58,702 bases of DNA from Candidatus Curtissbacteria bacterium RIFCSPLOWO2_02_41_11 (GCA_001775055.1 MFBU01000014.1:59833-118534); one strand, 5' to 3'; counted from the first letter of the stretch, positions 12,766-28,538 are shown. Numbers and translations: made by a program. The notes: generated from the letters alone by a model not told the origin.

Positions 12766-12810
12766 TATAATTAGAAAAACAGATTGACAATCAGTTTATG
12801 ATTCGATAGA

Positions 12811-12850
12811 TTCGACAAGCCCTTCGACCGTGAGCTCAGGGTCGAATCGG
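12811..12850 (+). repeat. GC-rich palindromic element
   Basis: ttcgacaagcccttcgaccgtgagctcagggtcgaatcgg. A 7-bp stem ttcgacc/ggtcgaa surrounds gtgagctcag. GC-rich against the AT-rich background. Confidence 0.6.
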
Positions 12851-12914
12851 CTCACTATAAATTTACTCCCTCCAAAGGCGGGTAGGCACCACAGGTAAAC
12901 TCTATGGTCTCCCA

Positions 12915-12983
12915 CCGGCTTGCCCTGAGTTTTGCCGAAGGGAAGAACGTCAAACGTCCCAGGGAAATTGCAATCGTGGAAAA
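12915..12983 (+). repeat. island repeat: GC-rich module + R first half, copy 3
   Basis: ccggcttgccctgagttttgccgaagggaagaacgtcaaacgtcccagggaaattgcaatcgtggaaaa is near-identical in blocks to 11703..11790. Confidence 0.65.
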
Positions 12984-13022
12984 TTCTGAATTGGTAAATA
13001 TTATTTGATTTATCAACTAATA

Positions 13023-13445: not shown

Positions 13446-13704
13446 TGCTGTTTTTATTTATTCCCCAAAGGTATTTATCTAAATTTGCAGATAAATCCCT
13501 GGGGCCTTTGGGCTTATACTTTTCTCCAACTTCGGCAATTTTGAGCAATGCACGGGCAGAAACAGTTCCTTGTTGAGCCACAGCAGAAATGCCTTTTTCC
13601 AAAGCTTGTCTTATTATTTCTGCCTTACTCTTTTTTTGAGTTTCAGCGGTAAGCTTTATTCTTTTTTCTAATTGTTCCGGAATATAAAGATATGTTTTTA
13701 GCAT
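13438..13704 (-). CDS. vapB: ribbon-helix-helix antitoxin (VapB/CopG-like)
   Basis: MLKTYLYIPEQLEKRIKLTAETQKKSKAEIIRQALEKG is an RHH pattern. The internal Met at 13704 is preferred over the ORF start at 13755. Confidence 0.65.
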   Translation of the reverse strand: MLKTYLYIPEQLEKRIKLTAETQKKSKAEIIRQALEKGISAVAQQGTVSARALLKIAEVGEKYKPKGPRDLSANLDKYLWGINKNSNE

Positions 13705-13770
13705 GTTATAAGTATAATATGTTGTACAACATGTTGTCAACCAGTTCCTTATCACAGAAGGTTTGTTGTC

Positions 13771-13835
13771 ACATCCACTTCCGAGGTGTACTGGGTTTGC
13801 ACATCGGGATTATTCCTCCATTCTCAAATTCTTCC
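13771..13835 (+). repeat. hairpin repeat family H, copy 1
   Basis: acatccacttccgaggtgtactgggtttgcacatcgggattattcctccattctcaaattcttcc. Differs from 14432..14496 at 2 positions. Stem ccgaggtg/cacatcgg. Confidence 0.8.
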
Positions 13836-14029
13836 CCGTCCTGAACGAAGTTGATTAAAGGGGGAGAGTCCTATAGTTGCTTTTGCAAAGAAAGAGTGTT
13901 AATATATACGTCAGTTTAAATCAGAAGCGTTTTAAAAGTTTTCGATACTTCAAGAAATTAATTTTTCTCCATATCTTTAAACTTCTAAATTCAAATCTTA
14001 TTTAAATACCCAAGAAAGGAGGTAGATAT

Positions 14030-14332
14030 ATGGCAAAAAGATTATTCGTTGGAAATCTTACCTACAGTGCGACAAGCGCACAATTAGAGGAACTTTTTTC
14101 TCAGGTAGGAAAAATTACCAGCCTAAATTTAATTACAGACAAATTTTCTGGCCAAAGCAAAGGTTTTGCTTTTGTGGAATTAACCACAGATGCAGAAGCC
14201 GATGAAGCGATTAAAAAATTCAACAATTTTGAATTGGATGGTCGAAAAATGGTCGTTAACGAGGCACGCCCTCAAGAGAAGAAAGACAGTTCAGGCGGCG
14301 ACAGAAGATACGACAAACCAAGAAGTTGGTAA
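14030..14332 (+). CDS. RRM-type RNA-binding protein
   Basis: RNP-2 LFVGNL and RNP-1 KGFAFVEL. Strong SD (aaggagg) upstream. Confidence 0.9.
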   Translation: MAKRLFVGNLTYSATSAQLEELFSQVGKITSLNLITDKFSGQSKGFAFVELTTDAEADEAIKKFNNFELDGRKMVVNEARPQEKKDSSGGDRRYDKPRSW

Positions 14333-14431
14333 GCTTTTTTAAAAAGTAGGCATTTTATGCAAAAGAGTGCAAACCAAAATGCGTTTTCGTTGCGGCAAAG
14401 TCCGTATCTTTTCTAGTGGCCCAAAAGCACT

Positions 14432-14496
14432 ACATCCACTTCCGAGGTGTACTGAATTTGCACATCGGGATTATTCCTCCATTCTCAAATTCTTCC
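14432..14496 (+). repeat. hairpin repeat family H, copy 2
   Basis: Near-identical to 13771..13835. Lies 73 nt upstream of the start of ORF 14569. Confidence 0.8.
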
Positions 14497-14568
14497 TTTG
14501 AATCTCATATATGTTCGTGCTTAAATGTCCAAACTAAGGTAAAATATATCTAAAGGAGGTGATTTAAT

Positions 14569-14895
14569 ATGAGCGATGATGATAAATCAAAAACAGATGA
14601 AGTTGCAGAAGAAGCAGCCGAAGAGACAAAAGCTGAAGTAGAGGAAGAAGCCGACGAAAAACCGGCAGAAGAAGCGGGTACCCAAGAGCCAGAAGCGGAG
14701 GAACCAGAAGCTGACAAACCGAAAGAGGAAGCAGCATCAGGCGATGCAACACCTGCAGAAGTTGACCAACAAGGCCGCCAGCTTTACAACGTAAAGTGCA
14801 GCAATTGCGGAAGAGATACACAAGTTCCTTTTAAGCCTTCGGGTGACAGGCCGGTTTACTGTCGAGATTGCTACATGCAAAAGAAAAACTCATAG
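14569..14895 (+). CDS. acidic protein with C-terminal CxxC...CxxC zinc ribbon
   Basis: E/A/K-rich N-terminal half, then CSNCGRDTQVPFKPSGDRPVYCRDCY. SD aaaggagg upstream. Confidence 0.7.
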   Translation: MSDDDKSKTDEVAEEAAEETKAEVEEEADEKPAEEAGTQEPEAEEPEADKPKEEAASGDATPAEVDQQGRQLYNVKCSNCGRDTQVPFKPSGDRPVYCRDCYMQKKNS

Positions 14896-14900
14896 TTTTT

Positions 14901-18300: not shown

Positions 18301-18686
18301 GGCTTGGAGAAATGGAAGTTTGGGCACTGGAGGCATATGGGGCTGCTTACTCTTTGCAAGAAATGTTAACTATTAAATCTGATGATGTTGTAGGTCGTGC
18401 CAAAGCCTTTGAAGCAATCATTAAAGGGGAGGAGATTCCGCAGGCTCTAATCCCTGAATCATTCAAGGTATTAGTTAAGGAATTAAATAGCTTAAGTCTG
18501 AGTGTTAGCACAATTGGTGCCAAGACGATTGAGAAAGCCAAAATTAAACCACAGGAAGAGGAAGAAACCAAACGAGCTCAAGAATTTGCAAAAGTTGCTG
18601 GAGCGCAAGTGATCGCCCAAAGTTCGGAAATCGCCAAAAGTGACAGCGCTATGGAAGTTGAAGAGGTAGGAGGAACTGCCAGATGA
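15309..18686 (+). CDS. rpoB: DNA-directed RNA polymerase subunit beta
   Basis: 1125 aa. Conserved beta-subunit blocks, e.g. GNRRVR, NPLSEV, RLTVMGTGG, GDKLAGRHGNKGV, GGQRLGEMEVWALEAYGAA. GTG start. Confidence 0.98.
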   Translation: MTKRISWGQPSNINLPSLDLIQVQRESFSEFLDKGIREILNEVSPIEDFTGKNFTLTFGNYSFGKSKYGPQEAIEKGVTYDLPLKLEAQVVNKQTGGKNSQEVFLCDLPVMLEKGSFVINGIERAVVTQLVRAPGVYYSGEIDPQSGKMLYSCEIRPLHGSWLEFAITKNDLITVKIDRRRKFPVTTFLRAIGFSESQSIIKLFSFVKDEQAKKLLNNTFAKDTTTLQEEALLEIYRRMRPGDHVILDNAKSLLENMFFNPRRYSLGKVGRYKIEKRLKYIKDHLTIEAHQDKDSQILTPSDFVAAIVYLFELMAGRGRVDDIDHLGNRRVRRVGELVAQNAFRVGILRLERVIKERMSLTPTDTVPSPASLINARPIISAINEFFRSSQLSTILDQTNPLSEVDNLRRLTVMGTGGIARERAAFSIRDINHSQYSRICPIRSPEGPNIGLVTYMALYCRVNEYGFLEAPYRRVVKDKNGKAKVTDEIIYMAADDEENYHITHAQVPIDSKGYFWEESIPVRYKGEFTTASRDLVEFIDVVPRQVVGTSASLIPFLAHDEANRALMGTHMQCQAVPLIKPKAPIIGTGMEEIVGFNMGRVVKAPQDGEIVYVDSKKVILKTKPQGVAKSGEITFPINKFSRSPQSTCYSQRPRVVMRQKVKKGDVLIDGSATDESELALGQNLTIAYMSFDGLGYEDAIVISDRLSKEDILTSIHIEEYETTVVETKLGPEETTRDIPNVSEEDLAKLDENGIVVVGAEVRPNDILVGKIAPKGETELTAEERLLRTIFGEKAREVRDTSLRVPHGEKGTVIDVKILSRDKGDELEHGALAKIIVKVAQMRKVVVGDKLAGRHGNKGVISKIVPTSDMPHLADGTPIDIIISPLSVLSRMNLGQLLETHLGWAVHTLGYKVAMPVFEHVSEEKVIEELKRANLPEDGRITLYDGRTGLPFDRPIVVGNTYIMKLIHMVEDKTHARSTGPYSLITQQPLGGKAQMGGQRLGEMEVWALEAYGAAYSLQEMLTIKSDDVVGRAKAFEAIIKGEEIPQALIPESFKVLVKELNSLSLSVSTIGAKTIEKAKIKPQEEEETKRAQEFAKVAGAQVIAQSSEIAKSDSAMEVEEVGGTAR

Positions 18687-21600
18687 ATGAATTAATTGAT
18701 TTTGAAGCACTAAAGATAACACTGTCTTCTTCCGAAGATATCAAAACCTGGTCTTTTGGTGAGGTTACTAAACCGGAGACAATTAACTACCGAACCTTAA
18801 AGCCCGAAAAAGATGGCCTTTTTGATGAACGAATTTTTGGGCCAACAAAAGATTGGGAATGTTATTGCGGCAAATATAAGCGAATTAGATACAGGGGGAT
18901 TATTTGTGACAAATGCGGTGTCGAAGTAACCCAATCGCGAGTAAGACGTGAGCGCATGGGGCATATTACTCTAGCCGCTCCGGTAGTCCATAATTGGTTT
19001 TTCAAAGGAAGTCCTTCTAAATTAGGTTTAATTTTGGATCTTTCTCCCCGAAGCTTGGATGCGGTTGTCTATTTTGCTTCATATTTGGCAATTGAAGTAG
19101 CTGACGAAGTTAAGAAACAAGTCATTAAAAAATTAAATGGAGAGCTTGAAAAGAAACGCAAAGAAGGGCAGTTGGAACTCAAGAAGAAGTTGGAAGAGCA
19201 GGAAAAAGAAGCTCAAAAGGAGATTTCGAAAATTAAGACTGGGGGTAAGGTTAAAGAGCAAACGGATTTGAAGATAGAAGAGGCTAGACTGTCGATGCGC
19301 CAAAGACAGGCAAAACTCCGTGATGAGAATGCTGTGGAGATCTTGCGGCTTGAGGAAATCTACAAAAATATTACCGATATGGTTTCTTCGATTAAACCCC
19401 TGGATATTCTTTCGGAGGAAGAGTATTTGAAACTAGCCGATTATAATGCCGAAGGTTTCCTCAAAGTTGGTATGGGGGCTGAAGCTTTATATCAGGTTCT
19501 TGAAAAAATCGATTTAGCCGAGCTTTCCATAAAGCTGCGTGAAGAAATACTCAGGGCAACCGGCCAAAAGTACATTAGAGCTACCAAAAAACTTCGGGTT
19601 GTCGAAAGCATGAAAAAATCCGGTATTTTGCCAACTTGGATGATAGTCAAAATTTTGCCGGTTTTACCGCCGGATTTAAGACCAATGGTCCAGCTTTCTG
19701 GGGGCAGATTTGCCACTTCTGACCTTAATGACCTTTACCGAAGAGTTATTAACAGAAACAACCGACTCAAAAAATTAATTGAATTGGGTGCACCGGAAAT
19801 AATCTTGCGCAATGAAAAAAGGATGTTGCAGGAGGCTGTTGATGCTCTTATTGATTCCCAGCGCATTAAATCAACCAGAGCATCTCAGGAGCTGAGATCT
19901 CTTTCCGATATGCTTCGGGGTAAACAGGGAAGATTTAGGCAAAATTTGTTGGGTAAACGTGTCGACTATTCAGGCAGATCGGTAATTGTAGTTGGACCGG
20001 AATTAACCTTAAATCAGGCGGGTATTCCTAAAGAAATGGCTCTTGAGATGTTTAAACCTTTTGTTCTTCGCGAAGTCATTGCCAAAGGGTACGCACCAAA
20101 TGTCAAAAGCGCCAAACATTATCTTGAGCGCAGAAGTGGTGAAGTCTGGGATATTTTAGAGGAAGTTACCAAAAACCATCCTATTCTTTTAAATAGAGCG
20201 CCGACTCTTCATCGTTTGGGGATTCAGGCATTTTACCCAATCTTAATAGAAGGTGATGCCATTAGAATCCATCCTTGTATTTGTGCCGGTTTTAATGCCG
20301 ATTTTGACGGTGACCAAATGGCTGTGCATGTGCCGCTCTCTGCCAAATCAAAAGAAGAAGCGGCTAACTTAATGGTAGCAGGCAAAAACTTACTGCGACC
20401 TGCTGACGGTTCACCAATAACCTTACCCAATAAGGAAATGGCGCTGGGAGTATATTACCTGACATCTCAGGATGCCCAGAGTTCTGAGTATCAAAATGTC
20501 TTCGCAAATGAACTGGATGTCATTTTGGCTTTGAATTCCGGCAAGATCAGGCTTAGGCAGCCGATAAAAATGAAAGCCGCAGGCGAAGTCATCGAGACAA
20601 CAGCAGGTAGGGTTCTATTTAACATGCAACTGCCCGAAGTCCTTCGTTTTATCAATGAAGCAGTCAGCGCTTCAACCATCAAAAGGTTAATTTCGGTGGC
20701 TATTGATCAGCTTAGCGAAGCTGAAGTTATTGATCTTATTGACAGGCTCAAAGGTTTTGGTTTTGAAGGAGCGACGTTTTCTGGCCTTTCGGTATCGGTT
20801 TTTGACTGTATGATTGTCGATGAGAAAAAACAAATTCTTCAAAAGGCAGAAAAAGAGGTTGAGGCTATTGAGAAGAATTTTAGACAGGGACTAATTACCA
20901 AAGATGAACAAAAGCGCCTCTCACAAGAAGTTTGGCTTTCAGTTACCAATAATTTGGCAGATTTAACTTGGAAGAGCTTGCCAAAGGATAACTCAATTAA
21001 AATTATTTCCGATTCAGGCGGTTCTCGGGCTACTGCCGAACAAATAAAACAGTTGGCAGCAATTCGTGGTCTAGTAACCGATCCGTCAGGCCAAATTGTA
21101 CCCCTTCCAGTAAAGTCAAATTTTAGAGAAGGGCTTTCAGTTTTTGAGTACTTTACTTCTGCCCGAGGTGCCAGAAAAGGTTTAGCCGATCGGGCTATTA
21201 AGACTGCCGAGAGCGGATATTTAACCAGGAGATTGGTTGATGTAGCTCATGATGCAATTATTAGAGTGGAAGACTGCGCAACTCATGAGGGAATTATTAT
21301 TTCCAAAAACGACCGTCGCTTAGCATCATTTACTGCAAGACTAGTAGGTAGAGTAACAGCCGCCGACATAATTTTTTCAAAGACTAAAAAAGTTTTGGTT
21401 AAGGCTGGTAGTCTTATTGATGAGCAAATGGCATCTGAAATAGAAAAAAACGGTTTTGAGGAAATTCTAGTCAGGTCTGTTCTTGCCTGTGAAGCTAAAT
21501 ACGGCTTATGTGCTATGTGTTATGGAAAGGATTTGGTTACCAGAAATTTAGTAGCAATTGGAACACCGGTTGGGGTCATTGCCGCCCAAAGTATTGGTGA

Positions 21601-22366
21601 GCCTGGCACTCAGTTGACAATGAGGACATTTCATACCGGTGGTATTGTCGGTTTGGACATTACCCAGGGTTTGCCGAGAGTAGAGGAACTTTTTGAAGCC
21701 AGGATGCCAAAGTTTGCTGCGGCTATTTCAGACATCACCGGTAAGATTAAAATTGAAGAATCTCCTCAAGGATTTCTGATTAAAATTAAAAGTACCAATC
21801 TCAAACCGCCGGTTGAACGTGAGTATTTTGTCCCGCCAACTTCGGAACTAACTGTTTCTAATGGTCAGCTAGTTACTGCCGGAATGCCCCTCTCAAGCGG
21901 CTATTTGGATGTTAAGGAAATTCTGGCAGTTTCCGGACTGCGCGCTGCCCAAAAATACATCACCAGTGGAGCTCAAGAGGTTTATGAAAGCCAGGGAGTA
22001 ACTATTAATGATAAACATTTCGAAGCCATTGTGCGAAAAATGAGTGACAAAGTTAGGATTGAATCGCCCGGCGATACGGTCCTTTTACCTGGAGAGCTAA
22101 TTGATAAAAATCGTTTTGAGGAAGAAAACGCTAAGGTTCTCGCAGAAGGCGGGGAGCCGGCAACTGCGCAAGTAATCATCCTGGGAATTACCAGGGCAGC
22201 TCTTTATACCGAGAGTTTTCTTTCAGCCGCTTCATTCCAAGAGACAACCAGGGTCTTGACCGATGCTGCTATTGAGGGCAAAGTGGATAATCTCCTTGGT
22301 CTTAAAGAAAACGTCATTATCGGAAGACTCATACCAACATCGCCCGAAAGGGCGCAGATACAATGA
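18683..22366 (+). CDS. rpoC: DNA-directed RNA polymerase subunit beta'
   Basis: 1227 aa. Zn-finger CYCGKY...CDKCGVEV, catalytic NADFDGDQMAVH, LNRAPTLHRLGIQAF. ATGA overlap with rpoB. Confidence 0.98.
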   Translation: MNELIDFEALKITLSSSEDIKTWSFGEVTKPETINYRTLKPEKDGLFDERIFGPTKDWECYCGKYKRIRYRGIICDKCGVEVTQSRVRRERMGHITLAAPVVHNWFFKGSPSKLGLILDLSPRSLDAVVYFASYLAIEVADEVKKQVIKKLNGELEKKRKEGQLELKKKLEEQEKEAQKEISKIKTGGKVKEQTDLKIEEARLSMRQRQAKLRDENAVEILRLEEIYKNITDMVSSIKPLDILSEEEYLKLADYNAEGFLKVGMGAEALYQVLEKIDLAELSIKLREEILRATGQKYIRATKKLRVVESMKKSGILPTWMIVKILPVLPPDLRPMVQLSGGRFATSDLNDLYRRVINRNNRLKKLIELGAPEIILRNEKRMLQEAVDALIDSQRIKSTRASQELRSLSDMLRGKQGRFRQNLLGKRVDYSGRSVIVVGPELTLNQAGIPKEMALEMFKPFVLREVIAKGYAPNVKSAKHYLERRSGEVWDILEEVTKNHPILLNRAPTLHRLGIQAFYPILIEGDAIRIHPCICAGFNADFDGDQMAVHVPLSAKSKEEAANLMVAGKNLLRPADGSPITLPNKEMALGVYYLTSQDAQSSEYQNVFANELDVILALNSGKIRLRQPIKMKAAGEVIETTAGRVLFNMQLPEVLRFINEAVSASTIKRLISVAIDQLSEAEVIDLIDRLKGFGFEGATFSGLSVSVFDCMIVDEKKQILQKAEKEVEAIEKNFRQGLITKDEQKRLSQEVWLSVTNNLADLTWKSLPKDNSIKIISDSGGSRATAEQIKQLAAIRGLVTDPSGQIVPLPVKSNFREGLSVFEYFTSARGARKGLADRAIKTAESGYLTRRLVDVAHDAIIRVEDCATHEGIIISKNDRRLASFTARLVGRVTAADIIFSKTKKVLVKAGSLIDEQMASEIEKNGFEEILVRSVLACEAKYGLCAMCYGKDLVTRNLVAIGTPVGVIAAQSIGEPGTQLTMRTFHTGGIVGLDITQGLPRVEELFEARMPKFAAAISDITGKIKIEESPQGFLIKIKSTNLKPPVEREYFVPPTSELTVSNGQLVTAGMPLSSGYLDVKEILAVSGLRAAQKYITSGAQEVYESQGVTINDKHFEAIVRKMSDKVRIESPGDTVLLPGELIDKNRFEEENAKVLAEGGEPATAQVIILGITRAALYTESFLSAASFQETTRVLTDAAIEGKVDNLLGLKENVIIGRLIPTSPERAQIQ

Positions 22367-22377
22367 GTCTAAAGATA

Positions 22378-22399
22378 ATATCAGACGAAGTGCTGATAT
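22378..22399 (+). repeat. ATATCAG/CTGATAT palindromic element A (minimal form)
   Basis: atatcag-acgaagtg-ctgatat. Lies between the rpoC stop and the relic rpoC 3' end. Confidence 0.65.
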
Positions 22400-22448
22400 A
22401 ATTGGCCGATTGATTCCAACCAGCCCTGAACGTGCAAGGATTCAGTAA
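22398..22448 (+). pseudogene. relic second copy of the rpoC 3' end
   Basis: Encodes IIGRLIPTSPERARIQ* vs authentic IIGRLIPTSPERAQIQ* (22316..22366). Almost every codon differs synonymously. It is in a different frame from rpoC. Confidence 0.8.
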
Positions 22449-22469
22449 ACCGGTCAATTCTGATATAAT
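22441..22469 (+). promoter_or_regulatory. putative rpsL promoter (extended -10)
   Basis: TGaTATAAT at 22461..22469 with a weak -35 TTCAGT 17 nt upstream. A second TGATATAAT lies at 22394..22402 inside element A. Confidence 0.45.
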
Positions 22470-22492
22470 CTGAAGATCAATTGGAGCATAGT

Positions 22493-22987
22493 ATGCCGAC
22501 AGTTAATCAACTTATAAGAAAAGGTCGAAAGTCAAAGCCAAAAAGAATAAGAGCAACGGCGCTTCGCCGTGCTTTTAACACGCATAAAAATAGGTACGTT
22601 TATTATCCTTCCGGTCAAAAAAGAGGTGTTTGCGTGGTTGTTAAAACCATGACACCCAAAAAACCGAATTCGGCGCTTAGAAAAGTTGCCAGAGTCCGTC
22701 TTTCCAATAAGCAAGAAGTAACTGCTTATATTCCAGGAATTGGCCATGAACTGGCCGAGCATTCGGTTGTTTTAATTCGCGGTGGCAGAGTTAGGGATTT
22801 ACCCGGAGTTAAATACCACATAATTCGAGGTAAATACGATACCACTGGTGTTGTTGGCAGGAAACAAGGACGCTCTTTATACGGTACTAAAATATCGGGT
22901 GCAGTTACGGGAGCCCAAGCGGCAGCAACTGTTGGTCAGGCGGCAGCAGTCTCACAGGCTCAAGTCGAAGCACCAGCAGAAGGCTAA
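22493..22987 (+). CDS. rpsL: 30S ribosomal protein S12 with about 30-aa Ala/Gln-rich C-terminal extension
   Basis: [13 protein letters not shown]...[15 protein letters not shown]...[20 protein letters not shown] 22493 is preceded by ggag. Confidence 0.95.
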
Positions 22988-23095
22988 TTTAAAAAGTAAA
23001 AATGAAAAAGGAAAAAGTAAATTTTCAATTTTCACTTGCCGAAAGCAACGCAAAGCTTTTCAATTTTCAATTTTGCGACCGAAGGGAGCATTATT

Positions 23096-23590
23096 GTGCC
23101 ACGAACTGGTAAGGTTGAAAAAAGACAAATTGCGCCAGATCCAATCTATCAAAGTCCTCAAGTTGCCAAGCTTGTTAATAAACTGATGATTTCCGGTAAG
23201 AAAGCTTTGGCGCAAAGAATTATTTATGAAGCTTTTAAATTAATTGCCAAAAAAGATAAAGATCCACTGGCGACATTTGAAAAGGCTCTGGAAAATGTTA
23301 CACCCAAAATGGAAGTTCGGCCAAGAAGAGTCGGTGGAGCTTCTTACATGGTCCCGATGGAAGTTAGAGGTGTCAGAAGAATGTCGCTTGCCATTTCTTG
23401 GTTGGTTGTTGCAGCCAGAAGCCGCACCCCTAGTGAAGTAGAAAAGCTTAAGAATAAACCGCTGATGATTTCTAAACTTACAGCCGAGATTTTAGATGCT
23501 GCCGAAGGCACTGGAAAGGCAGTTGCCAAAAGGGAAGAAATGCACCGCATGGCTGAGGCAAACAAAGCGTTCGCACACTTCAGGTGGTGA
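23096..23590 (+). CDS. rpsG: 30S ribosomal protein S7
   Basis: VPRTGKVEKRQIAPDPIY...MEVRPRRVGGASYMVP...ANKAFAHFRW. GTG 23096 follows gaagggag. The ORF track start at 23036 is probably too early. Confidence 0.95.
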   Translation: MPRTGKVEKRQIAPDPIYQSPQVAKLVNKLMISGKKALAQRIIYEAFKLIAKKDKDPLATFEKALENVTPKMEVRPRRVGGASYMVPMEVRGVRRMSLAISWLVVAARSRTPSEVEKLKNKPLMISKLTAEILDAAEGTGKAVAKREEMHRMAEANKAFAHFRW

Positions 23591-23602
23591 ACGAACGCTT
23601 TG
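23563..23602 (+). other. perfect 11-bp inverted repeat enclosing the rpsG stop codon
   Basis: caaagcgttcg (23563..23573) pairs with cgaacgctttg (23592..23602). The loop contains ...agg tgg tga. Confidence 0.7.
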
Positions 23603-23675
23603 TGCAGTCCTCCTAAATTTGCTCCTCGAGCCGTCTATGGATAATAGTGAAAAGGCGAGAGGTAAGAATTGGAGG

Positions 23676-23708
23676 GCAAATAAGGCTTTCGCACATTTTC
23701 GTTGGTAA
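23676..23708 (+). pseudogene. relic copy 2 of the rpsG 3' end
   Basis: gca aat aag gct ttc gca cat ttt cgt tgg taa = ANKAFAHFRW*. Identical peptide to the authentic end, with synonymous differences. Confidence 0.8.
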
Positions 23709-23783
23709 CGAAAATACTTGCAACTGCCTTGCGAGTACTGCGCTTGCTATCTAGATCGTTGTCAGATAGCACTCCGTACTCTA

Positions 23784-23810
23784 AAGGCTTTTGCCCACTT
23801 TCGTTGGTAA
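23784..23810 (+). pseudogene. relic copy 3 of the rpsG 3' end
   Basis: aag gct ttt gcc cac ttt cgt tgg taa = KAFAHFRW*. Confidence 0.75.
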
Positions 23811-23921
23811 TAGACTACTCGCCACAAATTCACCCAATGTGCTATAATCTGCGCTTAGTTTTGATTATTGTCAACAAGGCTATTTTTCTGCTTAAATAAA
23901 ATTTGTTAAGGATATTTGAAT

Positions 23922-24215
23922 ATGGTGCAAGCTAAAGCTCAAAAATTAAAACAATTAAAAAACAGGCTCAAAGAGCTTGAAGAAGTCAAGCTCAAAGAGG
24001 CGCTGGCCAAATATGGCGAGGCCTACCAAGAGTCCGGTTCGGCCTGGAATGAAAATGCTGCCTGGGAGCTTGCGGATGAAGAAGTTTCGGTACTTCGTGC
24101 AATGATTACCGAAATCAAAAATGAAATCAGAAATCTTGAGCATCCGGCAATTTCCCAGCTTAACGTTGAACCTCAAACTTCAAAAGCTGGTAAAAAATAT
24201 TCCAATTCCAAATAA
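23922..24215 (+). CDS. small coiled-coil protein resembling the GreA/GreB N-terminal domain only
   Basis: GEAYQESGSAWNENAAWELADEEVSVLRAMITEIKNEI parallels the GreA pattern (..GD..ENAEY.AA.E.Q....I..I). There is no C-terminal domain. aagga SD lies 8 nt before the ATG. TGcTATAAT at 23839..23847 lies upstream. Confidence 0.45.
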   Translation: MVQAKAQKLKQLKNRLKELEEVKLKEALAKYGEAYQESGSAWNENAAWELADEEVSVLRAMITEIKNEIRNLEHPAISQLNVEPQTSKAGKKYSNSK

Positions 24216-24228
24216 GACAGAAACTGCC

Positions 24229-24279
24229 ATGACACAGAAACAAAATAGACTGTATCCGCTTGACCGAATTCGCAATATA
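24229..24279 (+). pseudogene. relic copy of the fusA 5' end
   Basis: MTQKQNRLYPLDRIRNI vs authentic [17 protein letters not shown] (24374..). Divergence is synonymous. Homology stops exactly where palindromic element B begins. Confidence 0.75.
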
Positions 24280-24339
24280 TCAGCAGGTCGCCTTGGCACA
24301 ATTCTTCGAATTCGTGCCAAGGGCGCTCCTCTGATATAT
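24275..24339 (+). repeat. ATATCAG/CTGATAT palindromic element B
   Basis: atatatcagcaggtcgcc-[ttggcac aattc ttc gaatt c gtgccaa]-gggcgctcctctgatatat. The outer arms are the reverse complement of those in element C. The inner hairpin differs. Confidence 0.75.
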
Positions 24340-24373
24340 TGCTTGTTAGACTCGATGTCGAAAGGAGTTAATC

Positions 24374-26503
24374 ATGCCTGATAAAAACTCTCGACTATAT
24401 CCATTAGAAAGAATACGCAATATTGGTATTATTGCCCATATTGACGCGGGCAAAACCACGACAACTGAACGAATCCTTTTTTATACAGGCAAGACTTATA
24501 AACTGGGCAACATCGATGAAGGTAGCACCGTAACCGATTGGATGGCCCAGGAGAAAGAAAGAGGAATCACCATTGTATCGGCAGCAGTTACCACCTTCTG
24601 GATACCAAAAGAAGGTCCCTTTGCCGGTACTGAAACTCGGATTAATATCATTGATACTCCGGGTCACGTTGACTTTACGGCCGAGGTTGAAAGGTCACTT
24701 CGCGTTTTGGATGGTGGTGTAACAGTTTTAGACGCCGAGGAAGGCGTTCAATCGCAATCGGAAACAGTTTGGCGTCAGGCCGACAAATACAAAGTACCCC
24801 GAATTTGCTTTATCAACAAAATGGATAAAATGGGGGCAGACTATTTTGCCACTCTTAAATCAATCCGTGAGCGCCTTGGGGCTCCGGCCTGCCCATATAA
24901 TTTGCCATTAGGCCGCGAAAATGAATTTCAGGGAATCATTGACCTTTTGACTCAAAAAGCCTACGTCTGGAAAGACGAAACTGGTATGAAATTTGAAGAA
25001 ATTCCCATTCCAGAAGAGGAAAAGGCCAATGTTGAAAAATATCGGCACGAGCTTGTGGAAAAGATTGCCGAAAATGACGATACTTTACTCGAAAAATATT
25101 TAAAAGGCGAGCAAATTGAGACCGACGAGCTTAAGAAAGCTTTGAGGAAAGCCGTTATTACCTATAAAATCGTCCCGGTTTTGGCAGGTTCCAGTCTTCG
25201 CAATAAAGGAGTCCAGCCGCTTCTTGATGCAGTTGTTGATTATTTACCATCACCTCCAGATATTGTCGAGATTCAAGGAATTAATCCGAAAACCGGCGGA
25301 AAGGAAGTTCGTAAGCAAACTATAGATGCTCCTTTCTGCGGTTTGGCTTTCAAAATCCAAATTGATCCGCATGTCGGCAAACTTACTTATGTGCGAATTT
25401 ATTCCGGTACTTTAAAATCCGGGACTTCGGTTTTAAACGCCACTAGACACGATCGTGAAAGAATTGGCCGAATTCTTTTGATGCATGCCAATACCAGGGA
25501 AGAAATTGCTGAAAGCTATGCCGGAGAAATTATTGCTATTGTCGGACTCAAAAACACGGCCACAGGCGATACTCTTTGCAATGAGGCCGCTCCGATAATC
25601 TTAGAAACTATATCCTTTCCCGAACCGGTTATTTCCATGGCCATCGAACCTAATACCAAAGCGGATCAAGAAAAACTAGGTTACGCCTTAGGCAGGCTTA
25701 GTGAGGAAGATCCTACTTTTAAAATTAAAAGCGATTTTGAAACCGGTCAAACGATTATTTCCGGTATGGGCGAACTTCACTTAGAAATTTTGGTTGATCG
25801 TATGAAGCGCGAATTTGCGGTTGACGCCAAAGTCGGCAGACCTCAAGTTGCCTATAAAGAAACCATCGCAGGGCAAGCAACAGGTGAAGGTAAATACATT
25901 AGGCAATCCGGAGGCAGGGGTCAGTACGGCCATTGTTTCCTGCGGGTCGAACCTAAACCCCGCGGCGAAGGCTACGAATTTAAATCCGAAATCAAAGGCG
26001 GGGCGATTCCACAAGAATTTATACCGTCTGTTGAGAAGGGCGTTCGCGAAAAAATGGATATGGGTGTTTTAGCGGGTTTTCCGATGGTTGATATGAAAGT
26101 TGCTGTTTATGACGGAACTTATCACGATGTCGATTCTTCGGATATTGCCTTTAAAATCGCAGGAAGCTTGGCGCTCGAAGCGGCCGCCAAAAAAGCAGGC
26201 CTTACTCTTCTTGAGCCGATTATGAAAGTTGAAGTAACCATTCCTGAACAGTTCATGGGAGATGTTATTGGCGATTTATCGGCAAAACGGGCTCAAATTC
26301 TTTCAAGCGAACACCACGGCAAAAGTGTCATCATTACTGCTTTGGTACCACTTTCGGAAATGTCCGGATATGTGACAACTTTACGTTCTATGACTCAAGG
26401 CAGAGGTTCTGTCTATATGGAACCTTCTCACTACGAAGAAGTCCCCCAAAATATTGCAGATAAAATAGTGGCGAAAGCGAAAGGGGAGAGTAAAGAAAGC
26501 TAG
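24374..26503 (+). CDS. fusA: elongation factor G
   Basis: [38 protein letters not shown]. 709 aa. Confidence 0.98.
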
Positions 26504-26530
26504 CAAATTATAGGTGTACCACGAGTGGTC

Positions 26531-26608
26531 AGAGTATCAAGAGTACCACAAGCTTTTTAAGTTTTAAGCTCGTGATACCCGCGGTACTTTTAAAACCTTT
26601 GATACTCT
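26531..26608 (+). other. long imperfect hairpin downstream of fusA
   Basis: agagtatcaa (26531..26540) pairs perfectly with ttgatactct (26599..26608). An inner stem gtaccacaagc/gctcgtgatac is built from repeated words gtaccac/gtatcaa. Confidence 0.55.
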
Positions 26609-26732
26609 TAAATTCACCTCTTGCATTAGCCTGCCAAAATAGTATAAACTAGGCATTACAATCAGTCTAACTGACTGATGTTTTATTGCAATCAAAATTA
26701 CCCAAATTTCGAAGAAATTTGGATTTGACGGC

Positions 26733-27914
26733 ATGGCAGAAAAATTTGAAAGAACTAAACCGCATGTTAATATCGGCACCATTGGTCACGTAGACCATGG
26801 TAAGACCACGCTAACTTCGGCTATCACCAAAGTCTTGGCCAAAAAAGGTTTGGCTCAAGAAAAAACTTTCGATCAAATTGATAACGCTCCGGAGGAAAAA
26901 CAGCGCGGCATAACCATCAATATTACTCATGTGGAGTATGAAACCGAGAAGCGCCACTATGCCCATATTGACGCTCCAGGCCATGCAGACTATATCAAGA
27001 ACATGATTACCGGTGCTGCCCAGATGGACGGCGCAATTTTGGTGGTCTCTGCGCCTGACGGCCCTATGCCTCAAACCCGCGAACATGTACTTTTGGCAAG
27101 GCAAGTTAATGTCCCGGCCATTGTTGTCTATTTAAATAAGGTCGATATGGTTTCTGACAAAGAACTTTTGGATCTGGTTGAACTGGAGATTCGAGAGTTA
27201 CTTGATAAATACCAGTTTGACGGCAAAAATGCCGTCATCATTCGCGGTTCTGCCCTTAAAGCTTTGGAAGACGATGCCGAGGCAGTCAAATCAATTGAGG
27301 ATTTAATGGCCGCAGTTGATGAAAAAATTCCTACACCTGCTCGCGACCTCGACAAACCTTTCCTCATGCCTATCGAAGATGTTTTTTCAATTAAAGGTCG
27401 GGGAACTGTTGTTACCGGTCGTGTTGAGCGTGGCGTGGTTAAGGTTAATGAAGAGATTGAAATCGTCGGCATTAAACCTACCAAAAAGACAGTCGTTACC
27501 GGAGTTGAGATGTTCAGGAAGCAACTAGATCAAGGTCAGGCCGGTGATAATATCGGCGTCTTGCTTCGCGGAGTCGAAAAAGATGATGTTGAGCGCGGTC
27601 AGGTCTTAGCCAAACCGGGAACTACTACTCCCCATACCGAATTTGAAGCCGAGGTCTACATTTTAGCCAAAGAGGAAGGTGGCCGTCATACGCCATTTTT
27701 TACAGGTTACAGGCCTCAATTTTACATCAGAACTACCGATGTCACCGGCGAGGCCACTTTGCCTGAAGGCACGGAAATGGTCATGCCCGGCGACAACATC
27801 AAAATGAAAGTCAAACTTATTGCACCGGTTGCCCTAGAAGAAGGCTTAAGATTTGCAATTCGCGAGGGCGGCCACACGGTTGGCGCCGGCGTGGTTGCCA
27901 AGATTCTTGCCTAA
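26733..27914 (+). CDS. tuf: elongation factor Tu
   Basis: [32 protein letters not shown]. 393 aa. Confidence 0.98.
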
Positions 27915-27924
27915 TGCAGGAATC

Positions 27925-27959
27925 GACCCCTAGGCATTTGCCGCAGGGGTCTTTTTTTT
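27925..27959 (+). terminator. rho-independent terminator after tuf
   Basis: gacccct-aggcatttgccgc-aggggtc followed by T8. Confidence 0.85.
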
Positions 27960-27965
27960 GATATC

Positions 27966-28047
27966 ATATCTCAGCTCAGCTGAGTCTGATATATCAGAGG
28001 AGCGCCATTGCGAGGACTTTAGTCTCGCAAGGCGACCTGCTGATATA
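27966..28047 (+). repeat. ATATCAG/CTGATAT palindromic elements C0 (27966..27992) and C (27989..28047), sharing the junction ctgatatatcag
   Basis: C = atatatcagaggagcgcc-[attgcgagga cttta gtctcgcaa]-ggcgacctgctgatata. C0 = atatc(tc)ag-ctcagctgag-tctgatat. Confidence 0.7.
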
Positions 28048-28226
28048 CAATTGACGATCGCAAGATCTGAAGTGTGAAGTTAGAAATGCGAAGCTTGATT
28101 TTTGAAGTGAGAAAAATCGATTATAGCCAACTTTCAAATCAACTCGAATCTCACTTCGATATCTAGATTCCAACCCCTTACTTCTCACTTCTATTGTAAA
28201 CTTTCTGTCCGAAGGAGGTGTTACGA

Positions 28227-28538
28227 ATGCCAGAGGTTGAGGTAACAGAACAGGAAATGCATGCAATTGAGAGCTGGATTATTCACAATTCAAGACATTA
28301 TATGTTGAACATCGTTGGGAATCGGGATAAAAGAGAAAAGGGTGTAGCACATATTGCCGATGGAGAACCAATAGTTTTCCGTCCACTTTTTAAAGATGTC
28401 GCTAATATTTCGGGATACGGTATGTCTACAAGCAATGAAGTTTTAGTCAAACTAAGACAAGCTGGAGTCCAAAGACAAGGAATTATTGATGCAATCGATC
28501 AGGCGGCTTCGAGAGCGAAAGCTGATTTGGGGATCTAA
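28227..28538 (+). CDS. hypothetical protein inserted between tuf and rpsJ
   Basis: About 103 aa. aaggagg SD 8 nt before ATG 28227. No recognisable motif. Confidence 0.5.
   Translation: MPEVEVTEQEMHAIESWIIHNSRHYMLNIVGNRDKREKGVAHIADGEPIVFRPLFKDVANISGYGMSTSNEVLVKLRQAGVQRQGIIDAIDQAASRAKADLGI

Follow-up and report, generated by a model that had tools for sequence, protein, structure and literature searches.

Some mobile elements integrate at the 3′ end of a protein gene and bring a replacement end, as e14 and phage 21 do in the icd gene of E. coli. Streptococcal integrative elements are found in rplL, rpsI, and fda, with deleted derivatives (CIMEs) and tandem accretion. The Correia elements of Neisseria belong to the miniature inverted-repeat or REP-like elements; elements of this type are not known to bring a recoded version of the neighbouring gene end or to leave a relic. 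IS200/IS605 transposons employ guide-RNA-assisted homing via TnpB or IscB with an omega RNA. In natural transformation of Acinetobacter and Streptococcus pneumoniae, homology-facilitated illegitimate recombination (HFIR) combines a one-sided homologous anchor in a conserved gene with a microhomology joint, by which foreign DNA can be inserted and recipient sequence duplicated.

In fungal mitochondria, mobile ORFs bring a foreign C-terminus to atp6 of Allomyces macrogynus and to atp6, atp9, cox2, and nad3 of Glomus (PMC3630166). These insertions are about 1 kb long and encode a LAGLIDADG or GIY-YIG endonuclease that moves them (PMC3630166). Judged by resemblance, such replacement of a gene's C-terminus is the closest known analogue of what was found in the rpoC gene of Candidatus Curtissbacteria bacterium RIFCSPLOWO2_02_41_11. 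In the 58,702-nucleotide stretch of its DNA that was analysed (the window), as in the fungal genes, an in-frame foreign C-terminus is followed just downstream by the native C-terminus, left as a relic. The nucleotide identity between the relic and the sister species is 92% for rpoC and 91-98% for the fungi, and that between the inserted and the native ends is 61% and 64-81%, respectively, with a peptide identity of about 100% (fungal values from PMC3630166). A horizontal origin is inferred in the same way in the two systems. The relic is closer to the sister than the inserted copy is, both for rpoC (4/51 versus 18/51 differences) and for rpsG. In contrast, the fungal system has an endonuclease ORF between the two ends, where the window rpoC has only 31 nt. 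Unlike the fungal mobile ORFs, the CPR inserts measure 82-120 bp, are non-coding, end in a small conserved hairpin or palindrome, reside in bacterial hosts, occur at gene starts too, and form nested triples. A literature search for a bacterial or CPR precedent found none.

The reading proposed here is that the rpoC relic was displaced by a foreign module of a recurrent class of gene-end replacements, integrated at the DNA level; I put its probability at about 0.7. The same arrangement at many housekeeping genes of CPR bacteria, which are ultrasmall, suggests an undescribed kind of mobile DNA. Like integrative elements, the modules supply a synonymous-variant gene end and leave the native end at the far junction, and repeated insertion at a site yields several ends. 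However, integrative elements measure kilobases, have identical att cores, and encode or require an integrase, whereas the modules have no integrase and a core identity of at most 8 nt (ATAATTGG, in the L001 lineage), which is imperfect in the window.

Two rpoC ends of different origin

As listed in Table 1, the rpoC ORF, which reads NVIIGRLIPTSPERAQIQ before its stop codon, is followed by a second version of its own tail. The preliminary description had reported two tails 31 nt apart, in different frames and both with a stop, and these coordinates and peptides were reproduced. Copy 2 lies in the +1 frame relative to rpoC and has neither a start codon nor a ribosome-binding site of its own. 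The two peptides share 15 of 16 residues, and a stop ends both. In contrast, only 31 of the 51 nucleotides are identical (61%; 12/17, 14/17, and 5/17 at the three codon positions). As had been noted before, the divergence is synonymous with a single Q/R change: 14 codons differ synonymously (TCG/AGC, AGA/CGA, CTC/TTG, and GGA/GGC among them) and one non-synonymously. The stop codon of copy 1 is TGA and is overlapped by an ATG (ATGA). All five module tails seen end with TGA and this ATGA overlap, while native tails mostly end with TAA or TAG.

Table 1. Features between rpoC and tuf, in window coordinates
Feature	Position	Strand	Basis
rpoC (beta-prime, 1227 aa) as translated now	18683..22366	+	ORF list, translation, Pfam labels on identical contigs
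Gene-end replacement module (recoded tail, stop, stem-closing sequence, short palindrome)	22316..22397	+	Absent from L082 with matching flanks; 78/82 in L084
Copy 1, active recoded rpoC tail, IIGRLIPTSPERAQIQ and stop	22316..22366	+	Translation, alignment
Hairpin enclosing the new tail (R1 AGACTCAT, 22325-22332; R2 ATGAGTCT, 22363-22370)	22325..22370	+	
Internally deleted family A palindrome (arms ATATCAG/CTGATAT, 22378-22399)	22371..22405	+	Covariance model R1, 18 bits, E = 0.04
Copy 2, relic, displaced native rpoC tail, IIGRLIPTSPERARIQ and stop	22398..22448	+	47/51 identical to the L082 single tail
Relic stem-closing sequence CCGGTCAATT (22450-22459), then putative native rpsL extended -10-like box TGATATAAT (22461-22469)	22450..22469	+	Fold, conservation
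rpsL (S12), next downstream gene	22493..22987	+	ORF list, labels on identical contigs
rpsG module: recoded tail ANKAFAHFRW and stop (23558-23590), R2 CGAACGCTTTGT (23592-23603), family B element (23607-23677)	23558..23677	+	Covariance model R2, 84 bits
rpsG relic 1, ANKAFAHFRW and stop	23676..23708	+	4/33 differences from the L082 active rpsG tail, all synonymous
Older hairpin spacer (23709-23783) and rpsG relic 2, KAFAHFRW and stop (23784-23810)	23709..23810	+	Both also in L082
Displaced native fusA head (MTQKQNRLYPLDRIRNI...), 50-aa ORF	24229..24381	+	Its stop overlaps with the start of the real fusA (ATGCCTGA)
Full-length family A palindrome between fusA decoy head and active head	24271..24344	-	Covariance model R1, 81.6 bits
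Family A palindrome downstream of tuf, intergenic, without gene-end duplicate	27984..28052	+	Covariance model R1, 82.9 bits

Could such a match arise by chance? The tail of each of the 147 ORFs of the window was scored against its downstream sequence with BLOSUM62. The median was 13 and the 99th percentile was 40, while rpoC scored 74. Among 160 rpoC loci of other genomes, none scored above 29 apart from the double-tail lineages, which scored 62-78. The peptide-preserving double tail thus lies outside both control distributions; a chance match had been named as a possible refutation. The 271-nt stretch 22250..22520 was matched exactly in eight other assemblies made from different samples with different assemblers, and these are 99.6-100% identical to the window across 12.9-21 kb.

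The sister lineage L082 has an rpoC gene 93% identical to that of the window (83% at third positions) and a single tail. This tail differs from copy 2 at 4 of 51 positions and from copy 1 at 18. Thus, copy 2 was shown to be the former native 3′ end of rpoC, now displaced, and it is very probably not translated. The final 17 codons of the present rpoC ORF are part of the inserted module. The stretch 22316-22397, consisting of copy 1 and the 31-nt hairpin spacer, is identical at 78 of 82 positions to a module in the L084 lineage, despite the rpoC genes of L084 and the window being only 75% identical, with 45% identity at third positions (saturated). The best of 374 upstream windows of 82 nt has 13 differences in the same comparison (binomial P about 1e-6). 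Therefore, the upstream copy, which is the one now in use, was shown to be the foreign one, and the module came from another lineage. The relics of L084 and the window differ at 12 of 51 positions, and L001, a closer relative of L084, has a different module variant. An ancient duplication with vertical descent and losses only was rejected, since it leaves the 78/82 identity unexplained against a 75% background. The comparison of both 51-nt versions with related genomes, which had been proposed as a check, thus bears out the idea that both evolved as real gene ends in separate lineages: copy 2 matches the sole tail of L082, and copy 1 belongs to an L084-like module.

The flanks of the insertion are L082-like right up to the junction between GTC and AT. 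About 55 nt on the upstream side were read without any donor-type substitution being seen, and the 18 nt that abut the junction are identical to those of L082. The module is a clean insertion between codon V1210 and the first Ile codon of rpoC. Double rpoC tails that share this junction (GCTGATATAATTGG) were seen in three separate Curtissbacteria clades, each beside a single-tail sister, and also in L177, a poor-quality genome bin with a frameshift in rpoC and a truncated rpsL. As for repeats at the two junctions, L001 has ATAATTGG at both, while the window has ATTATCGG and ATAATTGG.

The new tail is enclosed in a hairpin with an inner stem-loop (CGCCC-GAAA-GGGCG, 22341-22354) and a fold z-score of -4.1. 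Its stem is kept through compensatory changes (AGGCT/AGCCT in L001 and GCGCTT/AAGCGC in L002), and in L177 the stem, read by eye, is 19 nt long with 17 paired positions. The R2 segment is able to pair with the R1 of the active tail or with that of the relic. The hairpin that R2 forms with the beginning of the active tail shows covariation, which may point to a function of the arrangement at the RNA level. R2 was also considered as a guide to the native target and rejected, because it fits the active copy better than the relic (10/10 versus 7/10 in L200). Downstream of this hairpin lies an internally deleted family A palindrome, which scores 18 bits against 81-91 bits for full-length members with the same model. 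The first TGATATAAT is part of the 3′ arm of this palindrome, and the arm reaches into the beginning of the relic. It had been claimed that each copy is followed by this box. The motif does occur at 22394 and 22461 (CTGATATAAT at 22393 and 22460), but the first occurrence overlaps the first two codons of copy 2. A -10-like box is conserved at the same place before rpsL in the single-tail lineages L003, L085, L091, L162, and L163, and only the second TGATATAAT is the native promoter-like box of rpsL. Neither box was listed in a sigma-70 promoter scan, since neither has a -35 element.

Recurrence at other genes and two element families

Is the double end unique to rpoC? The preliminary description had proposed a search for other duplicated gene termini. 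Within the window, two relics of rpsG and a decoy head of fusA were found besides the rpoC relic, and a scan of all ORF heads and tails gave no relics beyond these four between rpoC and fusA. The rpsG gene has three nested tails. Its module is absent from L082, and the window has one module more than L082 at this gene. The older relic 2 reads KAFAYFRW before the stop in L082. Since the split from L082 at 7% divergence, the window lineage has gained two modules (rpoC and rpsG). The fusA decoy head is at the native position right after a conserved 97-aa ORF, as in L003, and it is called as a gene in L165 and L168. This relic again lies 3′ of a family A palindrome in the palindrome's own orientation. 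Two other species (L173 and L174) have the 56-nt core of the palindrome downstream of tuf at 100% identity.

Beyond the window, gene-end replacement modules were shown to form a wider class in Microgenomates (CPR), to which these cases belong. The inserts are 80-120 bp long and non-coding, with an element body of 31-70 nt. The layout was shown to be constant on either gene strand: the gene body with its recoded active end, then the structured element in the 5′ to 3′ direction, and then the native relic. The outer junction is always the 3′ end of the conserved structured element, in more than 10 different genes, and an element at a gene head is oriented antisense to its gene. Family A, a TATCAG...CTGATA palindrome, sits at rpoC tails and at fusA heads. 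Family B, a GAGCCGT...GGTAAG hairpin, sits at rpsG, rpmG, rpsI, rplL, rpsJ, gyrB, rpoD, pth, and other genes. Both have invariant unpaired nucleotides and covarying stems.

Family A has three copies in the window and occurs in at least five other genomes. Compensatory changes were seen in 12 of its 27 pairs, and its core is 100% identical across three species. It has inverted repeats (TATCAG/CTGATA) whose arms read as outward-facing -10-like boxes, and every full copy is flanked by TA, though this TA could belong to the repeat. Family A is similar to Correia-type elements as a short multi-copy palindrome with terminal inverted repeats, intergenic in several species with up to 100% identity; no partner transposase was identified for it. 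In family B, sampled from 61 species, 88.8% of the alignment cells are paired against 73.4% after shuffling, and 208 cells have double-sided changes against 69.5 (none of 500 shuffles reached this number). About 24 of the 61 copies are flanked by the active end and the relic of one gene, and about 60% have no recognisable relic. A search of Rfam 15 gave no match at E <= 5 across 22200-28300 or in four element-carrying loci. Families A and B are two new structured elements, neither of which is in Rfam. A self-splicing intron, a known small ribozyme, or another known RNA family was rejected for the lack of an Rfam match and for the antisense orientation at gene heads, and a phage origin was rejected because the core pattern of family B is absent from a viral contig collection.

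In 30 pairs of active end and relic (379 codons), 128 codons are identical, 218 differ synonymously, and 33 differ non-synonymously, with an ascertainment bias in that the pairs were chosen by peptide similarity. The seven least-diverged pairs have 31 synonymous differences and no non-synonymous one. Codon identity between pair members is 0.35, against 0.40 expected for independent encodings when the codon usage of the window is applied to all genomes. The copies thus differ as much as if one peptide had been encoded twice independently, which excludes local slippage, in accordance with what had been said of rpoC before. The near-complete synonymous saturation of most pairs goes beyond casual exchange among close relatives and hints at selection for recoding. 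Some relics have decayed: L002 has LMGRLIPTSGDRAKIQ in rpoC (relic LMGRLIPTSG...) and a fusA decoy SSYSLDRTRN, and the rpsG relics have an H-to-Y change in L082 and a frameshift in L179. The rpoC relic also varies in its frame (+1 in the window, +2 in both L001 and L002), and in L002 it is closely preceded by an in-frame TGA.

Mechanism and rival explanations

In the proposed mechanism, integration would occur at the DNA level, with the gene-side junction formed via homology with the conserved gene and the outer junction fixed at the 3′ end of the element. Because the module folds into closed hairpins, a clean gain by recombination with imported DNA is possible: the module would loop out while the donor gene body and the relic pair with the uninterrupted allele. 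Precise loss might take place through recombination between the two copies. Recoding would prevent recombination between the direct repeats, or their recognition as an empty site. The single tail of L087 consists of the 5′ half of L002 copy 1 and the 3′ half of L002 copy 2, which is the product expected from module loss through recombination between copies. Much of the patchiness in the distribution could stem from precise losses that occurred repeatedly, and not from repeated gains. A bolder version of the mechanism, which I consider tentative and on the whole unlikely, is that tiny non-coding selfish modules home into conserved gene ends, with a recoded self-immune end and the native end as a guide or homology arm. 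Likewise, it is possible but doubtful that the native end, kept beside a conserved structured scaffold, guides a nuclease or recombinase encoded elsewhere or acts as a recombination arm, with targets including rpoC, rpsG, fusA, rpmG, rpsI, gyrB, and rpoD.

The duplicate had been interpreted as a scar of replacement or insertion by DNA from a diverged relative. The foreign origin stands, as does an element-like insert with its own gene end; what did not stand is the one-off scar, since several clades share the junction and the duplicate is an instance of a recurrent module type. A single HFIR event would be an rpoC-anchored import with an illegitimate joint at ATAAT and no element or dedicated mechanism, the microhomology being between the -10 box of the donor rpsL and the ATA ATT codons of the recipient. 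The module is indeed foreign, single-tail relatives have CTGATATAAT before rpsL, and the junction (CTGATATAAT followed by TGG) is readable as a promoter box plus a tail start with 5-8 nt of microhomology. However, HFIR predicts scattered, idiosyncratic joints, while the module joint is fixed at the 3′ end of the structured element in more than 10 genes and in many lineages, and at rpoC different module variants in at least three clades share one junction. Two modules have been gained since the 7% split from L082, a donor tract was not seen in the roughly 55 nt read upstream of the junction, and the box belongs, as an arm, to a multi-copy palindrome. A single event does not account for the shared junction, and I regard it as improbable both for the import and for the proposed microhomology. 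A local tandem duplication of a tail-plus-promoter unit followed by divergence, or a chimera of two strains in the assembly, has a negligible probability. The structure is formally a repeat of tail, spacer, and CTGATAT, but the copies differ by 39% where the window and L082 differ by 7%, and copy 1 matches a distant species. Against a chimera, the junction is identical in the eight assemblies, the other double-tail types come from independent assemblies (four of the L001 type and two of the L002 type), and the sole repeat across the junction is 10 nt, too short to mislead those of the assemblies that were built with k = 141.

By analogy with TnpB omega-RNA systems, the element could be a guide-RNA scaffold and the relic a guide, with a nuclease encoded elsewhere that would cut uninterrupted alleles. 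This is rather unlikely in my estimation, as is its second part, in which repair would copy the module in and the active tail would be recoded to escape targeting. The modules do resemble these systems in having a scaffold followed by a flanking target, and selfish logic would fit clean re-insertion and immunity of the occupied site, although this is a resemblance only. The relic is always directly 3′ of the element in the element's orientation on either gene strand, the insertions are clean, recoding of the active copy reaches or exceeds saturation with the relic still native-like, both elements combine covarying stems with unpaired nucleotides that do not vary, and the window encodes an HNH/NUMOD3-like protein elsewhere (49392-50093). 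On the other hand, no nuclease gene is linked to the modules, no motif conserved across genes was seen at the gene-side junction, R2 pairs with the active copy rather than the native target, and some 60% of family B copies are without a recognisable relic. The elements are far shorter than known omega RNAs and match nothing in Rfam. It is very improbable that both copies are functional, with the relic translated (through splicing, bypass, frameshifting, or as a small peptide) or serving as part of an RNA switch. Such a role would agree with the overwhelmingly synonymous differences even in little-diverged pairs, with the alternative pairing of R2, and with an ATG that overlaps the rpoC stop in L001 and L177 and opens an ORF in frame into the relic. 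However, the frame of the relic differs among lineages and is preceded by a TGA in L002, older relics have frameshifts, truncations, and radical changes, the antisense element at gene heads excludes an intron or cis bypass there, and no Rfam intron or ribozyme family matches. Purifying selection on the relic via translation, for which the mostly synonymous differences among the relics of three species had been considered, was rejected on the inconsistent frames, the decay of older relics, and the evidence from L082 that the relic is simply the native tail. The coding-like look of the relic needs no translation, since the relic resembles the real tail of a sister lineage.

Consequences and the search for enzymes

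Under the reading of a displaced native end, the real end of rpoC can be told apart from the fossil end in annotation, and the duplicates of rpsG (twice) and fusA (once) are explained. Relics give rise to spurious small ORFs and possible gene-caller errors. The ends of genes for RNA polymerase, ribosomal proteins, EF-G, gyrase, and sigma factor are rewritten in CPR by non-coding inserts that cross species, and marker phylogenies based on rpoC or ribosomal proteins will include short, horizontally acquired tails. Two structured elements are new to Rfam, one of them in 61 species representatives. If the modules home, they would be a new class of mobile elements for which conserved genes serve as landing pads across species. 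If the elements have a nuclease or recombinase as a partner, they would make a compact, programmable-looking targeting device. If no enzyme is involved, hairpin-folded inserts would travel on conserved-gene homology in natural transformation.

No recombinase, endonuclease, transposase, or reverse transcriptase was found inside or beside any module. Neither a tyrosine nor a serine recombinase is encoded in the module or in flanking ORFs. Housekeeping genes make up the 101 ORFs that lie no farther than 700 nt from family B copies, and no endonuclease is enriched near the 61 copies. Larger, enzyme-bearing versions were looked for; the cargo of the rpsG insertions of L005 and L049 consists of a gene with weak similarity to peptidases and of unknown ORFs, with no endonuclease domains. 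No tnpA, tnpB, or iscB was found near the modules, and neither a motif conserved across genes at the gene-side junction nor a conserved target-adjacent motif was seen. A diversity-generating retroelement was rejected, because the copy differences hit all base pairs and not adenines alone, and no reverse transcriptase is among the called genes from rpoB to rpsE. With no enzyme in or beside the modules, the case for mobility is made entirely by phylogenetic discordance and by pairs of filled and empty sites.

Elsewhere in the window, an 81-aa ORF about 10 kb upstream (11970-12215) has an N-terminus that by eye resembles a truncated serine recombinase. An IS3-type rve ORF lies about 24 kb downstream, and the HNH/NUMOD3 endonuclease-like protein mentioned above is free-standing.

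Native and foreign 3′ ends of rpoC

The organism is a Candidatus Curtissbacteria bacterium (CPR, Microgenomates), and the gene order in the window is rpoB-rpoC-rpsL-rpsG-(97-aa ORF)-fusA-tuf-S10 operon. It was found that a second rpoC end, IIGRLIPTSPERARIQ followed by a stop codon, lies in the +1 frame at 22398..22448, 31 nt past the actual end of the gene. The preliminary description held that both ends encode the same peptide bar one residue with nearly all codons synonymously changed. The coordinates and codon counts agree: between the active tail (copy 1) and the relic (copy 2), 14 codons differ synonymously and one non-synonymously. The two 51-nt tails have 31 nt in common (12/17, 14/17, and 5/17 at the three codon positions), and some of the synonymous changes cross six-fold codon families (TCG/AGC, AGA/CGA, CTC/TTG, and AGG/CGT).

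Can such a match arise by chance? The tail/downstream match scores 74; the best such matches of the window ORFs (n = 147) have a median score of 13, with the 99th percentile at 40. A chance origin had been raised for testing on many genomes; among 160 rpoC loci of other genomes, the double-tail lineages score 62-78 and all others score 29 or less. The rpoC tail duplicate is far beyond chance. Judged on assembled sequence, a chimeric junction is very unlikely, because the surrounding 271 nt recur without a single difference in 8 further assemblies (NCBI GCA_001774895.1 among them), which were produced from different samples with different assemblers and agree with the window at 99.6-100% identity for 12.9-21 kb, and because the sole repeat spanning the junction, 10 nt, is too short for the k = 141 used in some of the assemblies.

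The sister of the window organism (L082; 93% nt identity over the upstream 1200 nt, 83% at third positions) has a single rpoC tail, ATAATTGGCCGATTGATTCCAACTAGCCCAGAAAGGGCAAGGATTCAGTAA. Against copy 2, this tail has only synonymous differences, at 4/51 positions; against copy 1, it has 18/51 differences. The window rpoC is L082-like right up to the boundary between ...AAAGAAAACGTC and AT. Since the only tail of L082 matches copy 2, copy 2 is, by this comparison, the displaced native rpoC end. The rpoC of another relative (L084) is 75% identical to that of the window and 45% identical at third positions (saturated). Its copy 1 plus spacer nevertheless differs from that of the window at 4/82 positions, while upstream 82-nt windows (n = 374) have a minimum of 13 and a median of 20 differences (binomial P ~1.4e-6). 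Because the module (the insert with a recoded gene end and a small structured element) is near-identical to that of L084 despite the 75% background, the 82 bp at 22316..22397 are a clean insertion of foreign origin. The L084 and window relics differ at 12/51 positions. L001, a closer relative of L084 (83% nt), has a different module variant, with a tail at 12/51 differences and a longer spacer. A scar of DNA inserted from a diverged relative had been proposed, and the lineage carrying each version was to be sought; copy 2 corresponds to the tail of L082, and 78/82 positions of the module are those of L084, so that the core of the proposal is confirmed. On these alignments, the direction of the event is resolved, the upstream copy being inserted and the downstream copy native.

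About 15 related rpoC 3′ regions were obtained from scans of species-representative genomes and metagenomes. Double tails are present in the window (= L081), L084, L001 (= L083, L093, L164), L002 (= L089), and L177, and single tails in L082, L085, L086, L087/88, L091, L003/90, L092, L161-163, and all more distant lineages. In a neighbour-joining tree of the upstream 400 codons of rpoC, the double-tail lineages fall into three separate clades, each with a single-tail sister (the clades being the window with L082, L001+L084, and L002 with L087). The L177 locus (reverse complement; a Curtissbacteria bin) was used with caution; its rpoC is frameshifted ~130 nt ahead of the tail (~3540) and its rpsL is without the 5′ part (~3990), due either to poor assembly or to real damage. 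Some relatives have a long rpoC-rpsL spacer (L084, 2484-2760; L003, 3900-4040), where a motif conserved just before rpsL, AAGGGnAAtATTAAGGGnAAAAC...CCCTTAAA, may be an S12 operon leader.

Structured elements of the modules

The region 22300-22475 is predicted to fold as three adjacent hairpins (z-score -4.1). The R1:R2 stem of the first encloses the new rpoC tail and an inner CGCCC-GAAA-GGGCG stem-loop. Compensatory changes keep this stem in the other lineages, namely L001 (AGGCT/AGCCT), L002 (GCGCTT/AAGCGC), and L177 (a 19-nt stem with 17 positions paired, as read by eye). All five rpoC tails belonging to modules (5/5) end in TGA with an overlapping ATG, while the usual stop codon of native tails is TAA or TAG.

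The mini-palindrome of the second hairpin is a member of family A, whose full-length form is TATATCAG-AGGAGCGCC-(variable stem-loop)-GGCGACCTG-CTGATATA. Full-length copies are also part of the rpoC module in L002 and in L177, and two further species have them in unrelated intergenic DNA (L173, 2764-2832; L174, 5446-5514). The 56-nt core of the copy downstream of tuf is 100% identical in the window, L173, and L174, that is, in three species. In L173 and L174, the copy adjoins the start codon of an opposite-strand gene. The apical stem covaries, with double-sided changes in 12/27 pairs, and TA is found on both sides of every full copy. The arms read as outward-facing TGnTATAAT boxes, and the intergenic palindrome may be a mobile bidirectional promoter. 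The preliminary description assigned a promoter box to each rpoC copy, and CTGATATAAT indeed occurs at both 22393 and 22460. The second is the native rpsL box, whose place ahead of rpsL is conserved among relatives with a single tail; the first has to be reassigned to the 3′ arm of the family A element. A sigma-70 scan lists neither because both are without a -35 element, and both are putative, promoter-like by sequence.

The core pattern of the second family, family B, has 61 exact matches in species-representative genomes (loci L179-L239), several genomes having two. They belong to Curtiss-, Levy-, Gottesman-, Roizman-, Woese-, Shapiro-, and Blackburnbacteria and one Saccharimonadales genome. 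The core pattern had no match in viral contigs, and the element had no match in Rfam. Covariation lends strong support to a four-helix structure: paired cells make up 88.8% (73.4% when shuffled), and double-sided changes number 208 cells against 69.5 in shuffled alignments (0/500 shuffles reach 208) and 13-66 in controls with partners slid by 1-3 columns. The invariant unpaired motifs are GA/GA, GAATA, and TGAAAA.

In about 24 of the 61 family B copies, an active gene end lies 5′ and a synonymously diverged relic of that end immediately 3′. The gene tails concerned are those of rpsG, rpmG, rpsI, rplL, rpsJ, gyrB, and rpoD; the gene heads, on opposite-strand genes, are those of a galU-like gene, a gene starting MEFV.DLHLHSKYSR, and pth. 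In approximately half of the tail cases, the sequence directly behind the stop codon, R2, is perfectly complementary for 7-12 nt to the start of the active duplicated segment, and R2 is a much poorer match to the relic. A further conserved palindrome, TTAGAAACTCTTAAC...AGAGTTTCTTAA, lies 5′ of many family B copies upstream of gene starts (L185, L188, L192, L194, L195, L203, L219, L221, L230, and L235) and is possibly a third element or an operator.

Coordinates of gene ends, structured elements, and enzyme-like ORFs in the window
Feature	Position	Strand	Remarks
81-aa ORF	11970-12215		N-terminus resembles truncated serine recombinase, by eye from translation
rpoC	18683..22366	+	ends ...KENVIIGRLIPTSPERAQIQ, then stop; last 17 codons 22316..22366
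Hairpin (i)	22325-32 : 22363-70		predicted; R1 AGACTCAT : R2 ATGAGTCT, across stop codon
Hairpin (ii)	22378-99		predicted; mini-palindrome ATATCAG-N8-CTGATAT
Hairpin (iii)			predicted; relic paired with its own closing sequence CCGGTCAATT
rpsG (S7) active tail	23558-90		ANKAFAHFRW, then stop
Family B element	23607-23677		71 nt, end of rpsG module; core GAGCCGT-N14-GAAAAGGCGA-NN-GGTAAG
rpsG relic 1	23676-708		ANKAFAHFRW, then stop
rpsG relic 2	23784-810		KAFAHFRW, then stop
fusA decoy head	24229-24381		MTQKQNRLYPLDRIRNI; family A palindrome then follows
Family A palindrome	24271-24344	-	after fusA decoy head; L002 equivalent decayed
Family A palindrome	27984-28052		downstream of tuf, intergenic, without gene-end duplicate
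IS3-type integrase core ORF (rve/rve_3)	46318-47007	-	~24 kb from rpoC
HNH/NUMOD3 endonuclease-like ORF	49392-50093	-	free-standing, 233 aa; adjoins tRNA-Pro (50149-50223) and recA

Relics at rpsG and fusA

A scan of all ORF tails and heads in the window gave exactly four relics, all of them in the stretch bounded by the 3′ end of rpoC and the 5′ end of fusA. Within the window, the search for other duplicated gene termini, which the preliminary description had recommended for the genome, returned rpsG twice and fusA once besides rpoC. The three rpsG tails (23558-23810) are mutually different at synonymous sites. L082 has only two of them: its active tail is the equivalent of relic 1 (4/33 differences, synonymous), and a second copy is that of relic 2 (KAFAYFRW, then stop). 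Because L082 has only two downstream tails, the window lineage must have gained a further rpsG module (23558-23677) atop an older one by nested, serial insertions.

The real fusA start is at 24374. The native position, which adjoins the conserved 97-aa ORF as in the relative L003, is occupied by the decoy head. The decoy ORF is 50 aa in length and its stop codon TGA overlaps the true fusA ATG, an overlap suggestive of translational coupling. In L002, this arrangement is present in a decayed state, and the decoy reads MAQAKTNSSYSLDRTRN. The 97-aa ORF (23922-24215), also conserved in L001, L002, and L003, weakly resembles GreA/GreB in their N-terminal coiled coil and is preceded by a conserved leader with a TGCTATAAT box (23819-23848).

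Among 30 active/relic pairs picked by peptide similarity (379 codons), 128 codons are identical, 218 synonymous, and 33 non-synonymous, with an nt identity of 0.73. The seven least-diverged pairs have 31 synonymous and 0 non-synonymous differences, which is incompatible with identical duplicates and a neutrally drifting relic. With the window codon usage applied to all genomes, degenerate codons for the same residue are identical in 35%, versus 40% expected for independent encodings (z ~ -2); the same measure, applied to orthologues as controls, is 40-45% in distant Curtissbacteria and 84% in the sister. Relics are not maintained indefinitely, because older ones show decay: the L002 rpoC relic (I>L, I>M, P>G), the L082 rpsG relic (H>Y), the L179 rpsG relic (frameshift), and the L002 fusA decoy. 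In L087, the single tail (~2350-2400) consists of the first 27 nt of L002 copy 1 and the 3′ half and downstream spacer of copy 2 (L002 region compared, 3853-4030), as would be expected if the two copies had recombined and the module had been lost.

Possible origins of the modules

In both families, the order is gene body with active recoded end, element (5′ to 3′), and relic, on either gene strand. Because the layout is independent of gene strand, cis action on the gene transcript (an intron or ribosomal bypass) is excluded, and the layout points to a DNA-level process in which the 3′ end of the element would be the fixed joint. The loci display a native relic, a foreign module, a recurrent layout, structured multi-copy elements, and clean filled/empty pairs. 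I favor, at a probability of about 0.72, a relic plus a foreign, element-associated replacement module. On integration, the joint on the gene side would form through homology with the conserved gene, and the outer joint would form at the 3′ end of the element. The module would fold into closed hairpins. Because the hairpin bases coincide with the junctions, the gene body and the relic of a donor strand could both pair with an uninterrupted allele, leaving the module looped out; such pairing would favor clean gain on recombination with imported DNA, as well as precise loss. Recoding may stop the repeats from recombining, or stop recognition as an empty site.

A guide-like system that homes actively is rather improbable. 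Alternatively, a nuclease or recombinase encoded elsewhere may act, possibly RNA-guided with the relic as the guide. No endonuclease, integrase, transposase, or reverse transcriptase was found in or beside any module, and the ORFs within 700 nt of family B copies (n = 101) are housekeeping genes. The window does encode a protein at 49392-50093 with the domain architecture of a homing endonuclease (NUMOD3 + HNH), and the 46318-47007 ORF is probably a transposase; no link to the modules was found for these or for the 81-aa recombinase-like ORF. Two further alternatives are target-primed copying, which would start at the 3′ end of the element, and homology-facilitated illegitimate recombination, which may account for the first event at each gene. 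Larger insertions after rpsG with the same relic signature exist in L005 (4900-6040) and L049 (= L121; 4790-5945). The 1.1-kb cargo of the former encodes a 341-aa secreted protein with an HExxH motif, weakly similar to metallopeptidases; the ~1-kb cargo of the latter has two ORFs (89 and 255 aa) without a Pfam match, and an rpsG relic of 30 aa is present as well.

The closest documented parallel to the favored replacement module, with the same identity pattern, is in fungal mitochondrial genes, where a mobile ORF inserts a foreign C-terminus and the native one is kept downstream (PMC3630166). However, the fungal elements are ~1 kb and encode their own endonuclease (PMC3630166), while the modules have none. 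Miniature inverted-repeat elements have palindrome features in common with family A but carry no recoded gene ends. Prophages and integrative elements insert at gene 3′ ends (icd, rplL, rpsI, and fda); they have the replacement-end logic in common with the modules, but they need an integrase and att cores. CPR rRNAs are reported to have insertions with homing endonucleases. The literature searched holds no description of such gene-end modules in CPR or other bacteria. The modules resemble known replacement-end insertions, and something more novel is a real possibility.

An accessory island (8552-14900) lies directly upstream of rpoB. Its Pfam matches are a C-5 cytosine methylase, a Vsr-like ORF, an ATPase-like 503-aa ORF, and a zinc-ribbon protein; by eye, it also seems to encode a PIN-like toxin with an antitoxin and an RNA-binding (RRM-type) protein, besides the recombinase-like ORF. 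Direct repeats of 65 nt (97% identity; 13771 and 14432) flank the RNA-binding protein gene, and repeats of 45-50 nt are present at 9766/11771/12296 and 11744/12937.
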